From Candidatus Bathyarchaeota archaeon (GTDB taxonomy: Archaea > Thermoproteota > Bathyarchaeia > Bathyarchaeales > Bathycorpusculaceae): a stretch of 64,000 nucleotides of DNA. The notes under the pieces are model-generated. The model was not told the DNA's origin, did no database searches, and worked only from the letters and a program-made list of their open reading frames with translations. Positions 17,759-21,294 of the stretch are shown here, one piece after another. The DNA lies in the NCBI GenBank assembly GCA_963767735.1, contig CAVYES010000005.1:128001-192000 (forward strand), in the 5' to 3' direction. Position 1 is the first letter of the stretch; the number at the start of each line of letters is the position of its first letter. Both the position numbers and the translations under genes were made by a program.

Positions 17759-18445
17759 GTGCTTATGTATACACGAGTTTCAAGCCAAAATAAAATAATC
17801 AATAACTATATTCAGAAAGTGTATCTCTGGCTGTTTGGAGGCATGTTAATAACTGGTATTACAGCTTATTTGGTTTCGTTGGACCCAGACATTTACAATG
17901 CGATATTAGGTAATGACTTTTTCTTTTATGGAATAATAATTGCCCAGTTTGTAGCTATCATTACCATTTCTGCTTTTATAAAGAGAATACCTGATAGTCT
18001 GGCGGAAATAACATTTGGATTGTATTGCTTTCTCTCAGGGCTTACCCTTTCAATAATTTTCTTAGCTTTTTCAATAACCTCCATAGCCTACGTAGTTTTA
18101 ATTACCGCCGCTATGTTCGGCTTCATGAGTCTTTACGGGTATGTAACAAAAACAGATCTTACCTCATTAGGTAGCATTTTAACAATGTGTCTAGTTGGGA
18201 TTATTTTAGCATTAATCGTTAATTTGTTTATTATGAATTCGCTTCTTGACACTATACTCAGTGTTTTGGGAGTCCTCGTTTTTTCTGGGTTTGCGGCACA
18301 TGACACACAAAACATCAAGAATACTCTGATTTATGGTGATGGCGATCTTATAAAAAAAGAAATATTGGGAGCCCTAAATCTCTATTTGGATTTCGTGAAT
18401 CTCTTCTTGGACCTCCTCGATTTATTTGGAAAACGGAGAGATTAA
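17759..18445 (+). CDS. Bax inhibitor-1/YccA family protein
   Basis: KVYLW, AHDTQNIK, GALNLYLDFVNLFL. Confidence 0.9.
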   Translation: MLMYTRVSSQNKIINNYIQKVYLWLFGGMLITGITAYLVSLDPDIYNAILGNDFFFYGIIIAQFVAIITISAFIKRIPDSLAEITFGLYCFLSGLTLSIIFLAFSITSIAYVVLITAAMFGFMSLYGYVTKTDLTSLGSILTMCLVGIILALIVNLFIMNSLLDTILSVLGVLVFSGFAAHDTQNIKNTLIYGDGDLIKKEILGALNLYLDFVNLFLDLLDLFGKRRD

Positions 18446-19107: not shown

Positions 19108-19644
19108 TTACTTTTTCTTGTTTGTTTTCTCTTCTTTTCTCTTTTCTAATTCTCTTTTTATATTTTCTTCATTGACGAATTCATCTAAAAATTGTTTGAG
19201 GTTTTCATGCAGCTTTTTTGCTGGTTCTCTAAACTTTTCTGTTGTTTCTGAACTCGGCTGGAAAAAGCCATATTCCGTTAGATAAAAGTTAACGCTTGAA
19301 TAATCGCCTGCCAAAGCTGAGTCAATGGTTTTTTTGCCCATTTCACGGCAAGCCCAATATCTGTGGTGGCCATCCAAAACAGCATAAAGATCTATTCGGG
19401 GATGTTTAACAACAACTATGGGATTTATTTTTTCGTTGTTTGCTATCTTTTTCTTATAGAATTCTACCCCTTCCCTTGAAACCTTTGTATCAGCAACAAT
19501 TTTCTCAATAGGTAATGGCCGTGCATATTTGCTTGGGTTAATAAAAACGTCTGGATTAATTTCAGGCTTTATTTTTGTAAGACCAAGAATATCTTTTTTG
19601 ATTGAAGTCCAAAGATTCTTTGAAATCTGGCGGAAACTCATCAT
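19108..19644 (-). CDS. ParB/Srx N-terminal domain protein
   Basis: NPIVVVKHP...YAVLDGHHRYWA. Confidence 0.8.
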   Translation of the reverse strand: MMSFRQISKNLWTSIKKDILGLTKIKPEINPDVFINPSKYARPLPIEKIVADTKVSREGVEFYKKKIANNEKINPIVVVKHPRIDLYAVLDGHHRYWACREMGKKTIDSALAGDYSSVNFYLTEYGFFQPSSETTEKFREPAKKLHENLKQFLDEFVNEENIKRELEKRKEEKTNKKK

Positions 19645-19831
19645 GCTTATTTGTCATGCTGGATAATTAATTTTTTCTATAGTCTGTAGCGCGGTGCATA
19701 AGGATCGCATTTATTTGCTTCGAGCGGAGCAATCCTTCCTCTTGGGTTCAATTTTCCCTGGCGGACCTGAACATTGCCTTGTCAAATATCTTTGGTACTT
19801 GAACCCGAAGCGATTTGGAACCTTGAATGGG

Positions 19832-19855
19832 GCTGCCCGTCCCCAAACCCGAAAG
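19832..19855 (+). repeat. 24-bp dispersed direct repeat, copy 2
   Basis: GCTGCCCGTCCCCAAACCCGAAAG. Confidence 0.7.
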
Positions 19856-20062
19856 AGACTGTGTGAAAAGTCAAATTTGTTTTAAAAAATTGCGTCTTAT
19901 ATGTTGAAAAAGTTCCTAAAGCCATTCCATTTGCGTGTAAATATAGCAGCTTTCTGAAATTGAAATTAGTTTTCACTCACCTATGTGAAGTCTCTTATTT
20001 AGCTTACCTTTTCCATGTTTCGCTTCCACTTAATTCCCCACTTTTCACTTCAGTCGATTGAG

Positions 20063-20168
20063 GCATACACCTATTCGCCCACACTAAAGAGGCAATATGG
20101 CTACGCATCCAGGCTTCCTCAATCAGTCTGACGTCCACCAAAGGGGACAGTGTGAAAAACGAGGAAAG
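20063..20168 (-). ncRNA. Predicted bridge RNA/seekRNA
   Basis: Two stem/internal-loop/stem domains whose loop strands match the reconstructed target and the circle junction (see findings). RNA ends are approximate. Confidence 0.72.
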
Positions 20169-20169
20169 T

Positions 20170-21159
20170 TTAGGCCTGATCGTAATACGGGCGCTTATTC
20201 TTCAACACCGAATAACAACACAACAACAACTTACGAGCAGCCGCCACCGTAGCAGCTCTCGTACCCCTTCTTTCTGCTATTCCCTGATACGCCCTCGTAA
20301 TGGAAGTATCATACTTATGCACGTGTGTCTGAGCGGCTTCCACCATCACCCAACGCAGCCAACGGCTGCCCTCCTTAGTGATCCCGCCATGCCTAACCAC
20401 CCCGCCGGAAGCATAAGTAGACGGCACAAGACCAGCATAACCACAAAGCCTCTCCCCAAACGGAAAACGGTTAACATCGCCAATCTCACTTTTCACTAGC
20501 AACGCAGAATAATAACCAATTCCCGGAACAGTCATCAAAAGCTTTACATCCTCATCTTCCCTAGCCAAACCCTCAAGCTGCCTAGAAAGCACTTTTATTT
20601 CCTCATCAAAAATCTCCATGATCCTAAGATAAGAATCAACAGACTCAAACTTCAAAGAACCCAACCACTCAACCCCCTTCCTAGAGAATAAACCATGTTC
20701 CGAAGGCCACTTAATTCCCTCATACGTCAGAAAACTCTTAATCTTCACACGAAGTTTGACACGTTCTCGGACCAAGAAAGCCCTTCGCCTCACTTTCTCT
20801 CGCAAATCCGACGTTTCTTTGCTTGGCATGTAAGCAAGCGGCAACGCATCCAACCTCGCTAATTCCGCAATAACTTTTGAATCAACCCGGTCGCTTTTAA
20901 TCCTAGCCTCCGCAATGTAACGCGTCTTCTTAGGATGAGAAACCACAACATCAAATCCTTCGATTACCAGCTGTCTATAAAGCGACGCTACCGAGGTGGA
21001 AGCCTCCATCGCCACCTTATCAACCTTAAAATGCGAAAGGTATGATAGCACTTTCTCATTGATCATTCTCGTTTGATTGATTATTTTTCCTTCAGTATTC
21101 AAAATAGTCGCATAAGTACTATCCTTATGCACGTCCAACCCGCAAACAACGGCGCTCAT
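20170..21159 (-). CDS. IS110-family DEDD recombinase/transposase
   Basis: GLDVHK, AMEAS, KSDRVD (DEDD); GLVPSTYASGG catalytic Ser; AAARKL. Probable start MSAVVCG at 21159. Confidence 0.95.
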   Translation of the reverse strand: MSAVVCGLDVHKDSTYATILNTEGKIINQTRMINEKVLSYLSHFKVDKVAMEASTSVASLYRQLVIEGFDVVVSHPKKTRYIAEARIKSDRVDSKVIAELARLDALPLAYMPSKETSDLREKVRRRAFLVRERVKLRVKIKSFLTYEGIKWPSEHGLFSRKGVEWLGSLKFESVDSYLRIMEIFDEEIKVLSRQLEGLAREDEDVKLLMTVPGIGYYSALLVKSEIGDVNRFPFGERLCGYAGLVPSTYASGGVVRHGGITKEGSRWLRWVMVEAAQTHVHKYDTSITRAYQGIAERRGTRAATVAAARKLLLCCYSVLKNKRPYYDQA

Positions 21160-21219
21160 AGTATGGCGTGAGCGCCGCCCGCCCTTAACACTTCCCATAC
21201 CATCAGTCTGTGTTGGGAG

Positions 21220-21294
21220 TGGGCCGAGCCGGACTTGAACCGGCGACCTTTGGCTCGTAAAGCCAACGTCCTAACCAAGCTAGACGACCGGCCC
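21220..21294 (-). tRNA. tRNA-Val(TAC), CCA not encoded
   Basis: GGGCCGG...TTGGC-TTTACGA-GCCAA...GGTTCAAGTCC...TCGGCCCA cloverleaf. Confidence 0.95.

Follow-up and report, generated by a model that had tools for sequence, protein, structure and literature searches.

The window analyzed here is a stretch of 64,000 nucleotides (nt) from Candidatus Bathyarchaeota archaeon (GenBank assembly GCA_963767735.1, contig CAVYES010000005.1, positions 128,001 to 192,000 of the forward strand). All coordinates are window positions, and the element under study is read on the minus strand. Next to a tRNA-Val gene, this Bathyarchaeia chromosome very probably carries an IS1111-type insertion sequence (IS) of the IS110 family, in which a DEDD transposase gene lies between a short left end and a long right end, the latter with a two-loop bridge (seek) RNA. 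The element measures 1224 base pairs (bp; 21203–19980, minus strand), to which a shared TG core is added. An archaeal host had already been proposed in an initial annotation made from the letters of the stretch. This is borne out by the archaeal small-subunit ribosomal RNA model, which is the best clan member on the same contig with a 1478-bit match, and by the titles of 22 related genome loci, 19 of which name Bathyarchaeota or Bathyarchaeia (the others being one Promethearchaeati, one Archaeoglobales at 49% identity and one Ferruginibacter at 31%). The locus comprises the following features:

21219–21294, minus: tRNA-Val (TAC), directly upstream of the insertion and outside the element (ARAGORN; Rfam tRNA, 62.9 bits)
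21206–21210, minus: left target half (LT), CAGAC, the same letters as the loop-1 3' strand at 20130–20126; the left-flank match holds family-wide
21204–21205, minus: left core copy, TG (TG at both junctions here; CG in classes B and C, defined below)
21150–21203, minus: left end, starting with ATGGTATGG (right donor half) and holding the sub-terminal repeat TATGGGAAGT and a conserved hairpin (conservation profile)
20170–21198, minus: transposase open reading frame (ORF), 342 amino acids (aa) (Pfam, NCBIfam, IS621 alignment)
20115–20166, minus: bridge RNA domain 1, target-binding loop, with outer stem TTCCTC/GAGGAA and inner stem TGTCC/GGACG
20131–20122, minus: domain 1 3' strand, TCAGAC-TG-AT, reading LT, core and two bases that repeat positions 1 and 2 of the left end
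20063–20106, minus: bridge RNA domain 2, donor-binding loop, with outer stem GCG/TGC and inner stem TGCCT/GGGCG
20103–20096, minus: domain 2 5' strand, TA-GCCATA (sequence reading and alignment)
20074–20066, minus: domain 2 3' strand, ATAGG-TG-TA, reading right-end tip, core and two bases that track the first two positions of the right target (RT1 and RT2)
19980–20062, minus: rest of the right end, with a purine-rich spacer, a conserved A/T-rich box, the sub-terminal repeat and the tip
20002–19994, minus: conserved A/T-rich box of the right end, CTAAATAAG
19985–19980, minus: right-end tip, CATAGG, the left donor half (sequence reading)
19978–19979, minus: right core copy, TG (junction reading)
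19970–19977, minus: right target half (RT), AGTGAAAA, departing from the 5' guide strand at one base (A for T)

The transposase matches the Pfam families PF01548 and PF02371 (DEDD_Tnp_IS110 and Transposase_20) with E-values of 2.2e-19 and 7.2e-22, both above the curated cutoffs. It also matches the NCBIfam equivalog NF033542, 'IS110 family RNA-guided transposase', with 229.1 bits against a cutoff of 140. Among the solved recombinase structures, IS621 (8wt6) and ISCro4 could be aligned with E-values of 5e-14 and 1e-13, respectively. In the IS621 alignment, the E of VAMEAS, both D residues of KSDRVDS and the SG of GLVPSTYASG fall on their IS621 equivalents and may be catalytic acidic residues and the conserved Ser-Gly; the first D (GLDVH) falls before the aligned stretch. 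GLVPSTYASG also represents the C-terminal motif GL-P----SG. The length of about 329 aa first given for this protein holds if a second in-frame ATG at 21159 is used, but the full ORF encodes 342 aa. The left end before the ORF is thereby 5 nt long (44 nt from the second ATG), and the right end extends 190 nt past the stop codon.

At its junctions, the element reads CAGAC-TG-ATGGTATGG on the left and CATAGG-TG-AGTGAAAA on the right. TGA had initially been seen at both junctions, and these letters are indeed present (CAGAC-TGA-TGGTATGG on the left and CATAGG-TGA-GTGAAAA on the right), but only two of them, TG, form the shared core, which in other classes is CG. In all copies, the left end begins with the A that follows the left core, and most right junctions of class A, to which this element belongs, read TG-T, not TG-A. 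Inverted repeats placed 7 and 3 nt inside the ends and 10 nt apart fit a shorter reading of 8 bp. A better reading spans 10 bp, with TATGGGAAGT (21199–21190) and ACTTCACATA (19991–19982) complementary at 9/10 positions, lying 4 and 2 nt from the element ends. This repeat is conserved in the family; taken alone it is within chance, as 31 inverted pairs of at least 9 nt occur in 1271 bases and this pair is absent among the 25 longest.

A two-loop RNA of about 104 nt lies 3' of the transposase stop codon. All ten strings from which its loops had initially been drawn were found in place on the minus strand by direct check:

20166–20161, minus: TTCCTC, loop-1 outer stem
20158–20152, minus: TTTTCAC, loop-1 5' strand
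20151–20145, minus: ACTGTCC, loop-1 inner stem
20136–20131, minus: GGACGT, loop-1 inner stem
20130–20123, minus: CAGACTGA, loop-1 3' strand
20120–20115, minus: GAGGAA, loop-1 outer stem
20106–20102, minus: GCGTA, loop-2 outer stem
20101–20097, minus: GCCAT, loop-2 5' strand
20074–20068, minus: ATAGGTG, loop-2 3' strand
20067–20063, minus: TATGC, loop-2 outer stem

The 5' strand of loop 1 is complementary to the top strand of the core G and the right target, and its 3' strand is identical to LT and core. As a target guide, this 5' strand reads GTTTTTCACAC and expects TG-TGTGAAAA, from which the right flank of this copy departs by one mismatch (A for T). In loop 2, the 3' strand is identical to the right-end tip and core, and the 5' strand shows 5-nt complementarity to the start of the left end. 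This copy alone is no proof of a guide RNA, since its fold is of ordinary stability and its repeat is one among 31 pairs.

The evidence that carries the guide map comes from the relatives, gathered from the 22 genome loci and 80 metagenome loci. Loop 1 was parsed by pattern in 80 rows from 103 sources, 77 of which are distinct. For the left side, the loop-1 3' strand was read over the eight bases that precede its constant A, and these were compared with the last eight bases of the left flank (LT and core). Across 61 rows, all eight agree in 17, seven in 38, six in 3 and three or fewer in 3, such that at least 6/8 agree in 58/61. On the right side, the reverse complement of the loop-1 5' strand was compared with the core G and the first eight bases of the right flank, and at least 6/9 positions agree in 38/63 rows; in class B this right match is typically GCGCT and sometimes longer. 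When flanks were shuffled among rows, 0/2000 shuffles reached the observed mean on either side, a descriptive control that overstates independence because the rows are related and class B makes up 52/77. The switches between target classes carry more weight than this test. At least six classes occur, and both loop-1 strands are rewritten to fit the flanks in each of them:

Class A (the class of this element): AGAC-TG-TGTGAAAA
Class B: TTAGCG-CG-CGCT
Class C: TCACC-CG-CAAATCC
Class C': TCTCC-CG (locus L073)
Class D: (A/C)GCA-TG-CG(C/T)GC (loci L037, L049 and L083)
Class E: CTAAAA-TG-GT(A/T)TTTA (loci L036 and L103)

In the other copies, the guides change together with the flanks from class to class. 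The claim of the initial annotation that an RNA 3' of the transposase has guide strands matching both target and donor is sustained by this covariation of the loop strands with flanks and core. The resulting guide map appears well supported by the compared sequences; the class of element is known, and this family would be a further member of it.

The core itself also takes part in the covariation. The loop-2 core (ATAGG-TG or ATAGG-CG) agrees with both junction cores in 54/61 rows (39 CG and 15 TG), and no TG loop was found at a CG junction in these 61 rows. In 55/56 parsed rows, the core of loop 1 is followed by AT, the two bases with which the left end starts. The loop-2 bases after the core vary with the target class instead (TA, CG, GT or CT): the first equals RT1 in 57/60 distinct rows, both match in 39/60, and they are never AT. 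This tracking is separable from that of the core because locus L037 combines a TG core with CG as its next bases, matching its own target.

The four stems of the initial annotation were assessed on an alignment of 61 sequences. Altogether, 92% of the cells are paired, against 36–56% when the partner strand is slid. The loop-1 outer stem is 98.6% paired with zero two-sided changes, and the loop-1 inner stem is 100% paired with one compensatory pair. The loop-2 inner stem is 97.7% paired, with two compensatory pairs in 17 cells. For the loop-2 outer stem, proposed as GCGTA/TATGC, the first three pairs (GCG/TGC) hold family-wide, but the last two fail in 41 and 48 of the 61 sequences and their positions track the right target. 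On the donor side, the proposed complement of (G)CCAT to ATGG(T) is present, but it cannot be assigned an exact register against the left end: neither the 5' donor strand GCCATA nor the left end varies much, which makes the registers CCAT/ATGG and CCATA/TATGG indistinguishable. Two alternative outer pairings, TTCCTCG with a distal CGAGGAA in classes B and C and GATTGAGG with CCTCAATC in class A, cannot be told from the local outer stem, given that the alignment columns show no covariation.

Two further observations concern these regions. A conserved CGAGGAA follows the donor loop in classes B and C (corresponding to window positions ~20040–20030, minus strand) and complements the TTCCTCG that opens the target loop. 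This pairing could close the whole RNA; in class A, this element included, CGAGGAA is degenerate. In addition, the left-end hairpin CGGCGCTCA/TGAGCGCCG (21177–21150) contains in its loop the word GCCATAC, the same word as in the 5' donor strand; in the region 21150–21206 (minus strand), this word complements the first bases of the left end.

The natural target of class A is the terminal inverted repeat of an IS1182-like element and of its miniature inverted-repeat transposable elements (MITEs). The class A motif occurs at 11 sites in this genome with at most one mismatch, compared to 3 for a reversed control, and two of these sites are perfect. They lie at the ends of a 1.6-kb IS1182-like element with a 482-aa transposase (DUF772 and DDE_Tnp_1_6; G000:C3:94522-96157 and G000:C4:260444-262079). 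They also lie at the ends of MITEs of about 116 bp that share the same inverted repeats and contain AGAC-TG-TGTGAAAA; such MITEs are also present in other genomes of the genus. The element studied here sits in one inverted repeat of a MITE next to the tRNA-Val gene (19852–19976, plus strand, together with 21204–21218). The opposite repeat of this host MITE holds an unoccupied target:

19856–19869, plus: perfect unoccupied target, AGAC-TG-TGTGAAAA, ~110 bp away in the other inverted repeat of this MITE

The region around ~19830–19875 (minus strand) had also been a candidate for a relic of a second bridge RNA; this is ruled out, its plus strand being the perfect empty target in the MITE repeat. 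When occupied junctions are compared with uninterrupted MITE or IS ends, the difference consists of the element plus one core copy, with no target duplication beyond the core dinucleotide. At some right junctions of class A, one TG of the consensus repeat is missing. A search of 40 relatives for the orthologous empty site next to tRNA-Val yielded only MITE copies and the neighboring gene, and no orthologous tRNA–MITE junction. In this uncultured archaeal lineage, one transposon family uses the inverted repeats of another as its landing pad. Insertion into a terminal inverted repeat that belongs to a different transposon has a known parallel, from which the present case differs in its target family, the IS1182-like element and its MITEs.

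A number of observations weigh against the interpretation as an active, RNA-guided element. The fold of the RNA is unremarkable: the 111-nt RNA does form both stem-loops as drawn in the initial annotation, but its stability is ordinary compared to shuffled sequences (z = -1.06; 33/200 shuffles as stable). In a longer 201-nt piece (z = -2.12), an alternative long-range pairing is favored. No family in Rfam 15 matches the RNA region at E ≤ 1. The outer stems and the 5' donor strand are invariant, and covariation cannot test them for that reason. Relatedness among the rows tempers the shuffle test, as stated above. In three rows (L022, L032 and L033), the left flank (AGAC-TG) is that of class A and loop 1 that of class B or C. 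Furthermore, this genome (95% complete) contains a single full copy, whose right target mismatches its own guide at the first position. No circle junction or precise-excision contig was found in the contigs of 4 of 22 matching runs. Lastly, metatranscriptome contigs from two studies cover 19970–20260 and 19968–20141, but they derive from relatives (90–99% alike) and give weak support for expression because DNA carry-over is possible and no RNA ends are visible; contigs can show neither RNA ends nor RNA levels, and the parts left uncovered in RNA runs carry no weight.

An internal GTGAAAAG (~20035) pairs with the 5' guide in the 201-nt fold; as its position is not conserved and holds CGAGGAA in relatives, this pairing is treated as a coincidence of this copy. 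As for the three mixed rows, the right flank of L022, L032 and L033 fits their class B or C loop, and L032 and L033 have a common right flank with different left flanks. They could be natural recombinants between classes or assembly chimeras.

Under a first alternative, the family is RNA-guided and this particular copy is an immobile relic on an imperfect target that no longer transposes. Its solitary occurrence and the mismatch at the first right-target base fit such a view, as do the two perfect targets left unoccupied in the same genome (one only ~110 bp away) and the presence of decayed relatives. The latter comprise a 5' fragment at C6:122495-122722 and a mini-element at C5:~18190-18390 (L003 ~1441-1640), whose left end runs straight into the donor loop and right end, without transposase or target loop, and which has CG cores and class-B-like flanks. 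This mini-element is the partial copy reported, next to one full copy, by an RNA covariance model, which finds matches in 31/101 genomes of the genus (1–6 per positive genome); neither a class B full copy nor a solo complete RNA was found in this genome. Against immobility, the ORF is open, full length and 96–97% identical to copies at other sites, and all loop and stem features are intact. The initial description of the element as intact accordingly stands for ORF, loops and stems, as far as can be read from sequence. Moreover, elements at least 99% identical to this copy occur on other flanks in two public DNA runs. The contig from run X1 has a single difference over 19970–21211 (1242 bases) and continues rightward into the flank of a site of the C8:2649 type, and the contig from run X2 continues at its left end into the left flank of that site type; the site G000:C8:2649 is empty in this genome. 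We therefore consider the relic scenario unlikely and retain the reading of a mobile IS1111-type element. Both copies of this lineage (position 19977 and the run X1 contig) have TG-A at the right junction, whereas the same site, when empty (G000:C8:2649), reads TG-T. The A at the first right-target position could reflect a preference for a target variant or a base carried over from the donor.

A second alternative keeps the element in the IS110 family but outside the IS1111 group proper, as a separate archaeal lineage with a 3' RNA. In the accessible portions of the literature, the IS1111 group is characterized by a left end that is short and a right end that is long, with an RNA or a long non-coding region following the transposase (PMC11187229, PMC11208160), by transposases of 330–350 aa with the C-terminal motif GL-P----S(t)G (PMC11187229), and by seekRNAs in which the bottom-strand match is preceded on its 5' side by the top-strand match (Siddiquee et al. 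2024, PMC11187229). The present element has the 3' RNA, the short left and long right end, a repeat in the 7–17 bp range, a transposase of 329–342 aa with GLVPSTYASG and the same order of guide segments. Every IS1111 feature given in these two papers that could be tested was found, and the placement by shared features appears sound at the level of sequence. A separate lineage would draw on the sub-terminal repeat, which is short (10 bp, 9/10) and not significant alone. It would also draw on the IS110-type elements with 3' non-coding regions that are noted as exceptions in the consulted text of Siddiquee et al. (PMC11187229), and on the scatter of archaeal IS110 recombinases over several clades, mixed with bacterial ones, described in the available part of a preprint (10.1101/2024.06.21.599552). 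With these shared features against it, we judge this placement improbable. The initial assignment to an IS110/IS1111 element with a bridge RNA is upheld by protein families, 3' RNA, guide covariation and guide-segment order.

Finally, it is hardly credible that the protein picks the target and that the 3' region is only an untranslated tail with a chance resemblance to the site: the fold is not unusually stable and the RNA-library cover comes from contigs of relatives, with none for this copy, but both loop-1 strands and the core in both loops switch with the flanks over six classes (L037, L073, L036 and L049), and the arrangement reproduces the published geometry of seekRNAs and bridge RNAs.

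By analogy with IS621 and the IS1111 seekRNA elements, the IS1111-type element would excise as a circle that joins right end, core and left end. The RNA would bridge the circle junction and the target, and the recombinase would exchange strands at the core without duplication beyond it. The two post-core bases on each 3' strand match the partner DNA and probably stabilize the exchanged state in the manner of the handshake guides of IS621. In the accessible text on IS621, these are dinucleotides beside the core pairing that match the incoming strand after exchange and favor insertion (Hiraizumi et al. 2026, PMC13626964), and the 3' side of a bridge RNA loop base-pairs to core and right half on the top strand (Durrant et al. 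2024, PMC11208160). With the DNA turned round, both maps would coincide and the post-core bases would fall at the handshake-guide positions of IS621. In the available parts of the literature that names both handshake guides and IS1111, handshake guides are described for IS621 only.

The ends of the element may further hold a junction promoter. Some 15 nt from the tip, 64 distinct right ends conserve the purine-rich stretch and A/T box (19994–20002, minus strand). At left-end positions 6–8 (21196–21198, minus strand), an ATG is in frame and open over the 13 codons to the second ATG in 53/59 distinct left ends. This arrangement suggests a right-end promoter that would serve the transposase gene only after circularization. 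A putative archaeal promoter with B recognition element (BRE) and TATA box, upstream of the left-end ATG on the circle, would be the archaeal version of the bacterial junction promoter. The combined proposal, with mirrored handshake bases that bias IS1111-type bridge RNAs towards insertion and a right-end BRE/TATA promoter that serves a leaderless transposase mRNA only after circularization, is a tentative one that we put forward with some doubt. A 178-aa ORF (19108–19644, minus strand) lies downstream of the element on the same strand, and an outward right-end promoter would read towards it.

Recombinases guided by bridge or seek RNAs are a current genome-editing platform, and to our knowledge the characterized ones are nearly all bacterial. 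This family adds a compact archaeal example (329–342 aa plus an RNA of ~104 nt) and a natural reprogramming series in which one scaffold bears two cores and at least six target classes. It is also a clean data set with which to ask if the IS1111 branch has handshake-type bases. Two leads emerge, the mirrored handshake bases and the possible junction promoter. The bridge RNA concept itself is unchanged, as the accessible texts already report IS1111 bridge RNAs and archaeal IS110 recombinases (PMC11208160; 10.1101/2024.06.21.599552). As given there, bridge RNAs are predicted in 93% of the IS1111 elements of ISfinder (Durrant et al., PMC11208160) and 662 archaeal IS110 recombinases are counted in the preprint (10.1101/2024.06.21.599552). 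Bathyarchaeota are not named among the best matches of a literature search for their IS110 insertion sequences; this family may already be listed in Supplementary Table 5 of PMC11208160 or Supplementary Table 3 of 10.1101/2024.06.21.599552.

As far as the available parts of the published descriptions allow, the element can be set beside three known systems. Like the IS110-family ISPpu9 with its RNA Ssr9 (PMC12288879), it has an RNA gene downstream, is inserted in repeats and has a non-autonomous derivative in the same genome. In contrast to the extra solo RNA copies of ISPpu9, the derivative here keeps the left end, donor loop and right end and lacks the target loop. The IS1111 elements with a seekRNA (ISEc11, ISPa11, ISKpn4 and ISPst6) share with it the RNA downstream of the transposase, the sub-terminal inverted repeats and a transposase of ~330–350 aa with the GL-P----S(t)G motif. 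Unlike these, the present element has an archaeal host (Bathyarchaeia) and other targets, and its donor loop and post-core bases are mapped by covariation alone. With IS621 it shares the division into an internal target loop and an internal donor loop, the presence of a shared core dinucleotide, and an alignable recombinase (E 5e-14). In each loop of both systems, one strand pairs with the bottom strand (left half and core) and the other with the top strand (core and right half), and a dinucleotide beside the core pairing matches the partner DNA, as a handshake guide does. The two nevertheless differ in layout. The RNA of this element resides in the right end, not the left, and each loop has its two strands in the reverse order; IS621 has CT as its core, this family TG or CG. 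The top-strand guide covers only the G of the core, and the handshake-like bases lie on the strand that reads left half and core, not on the top-strand binder.

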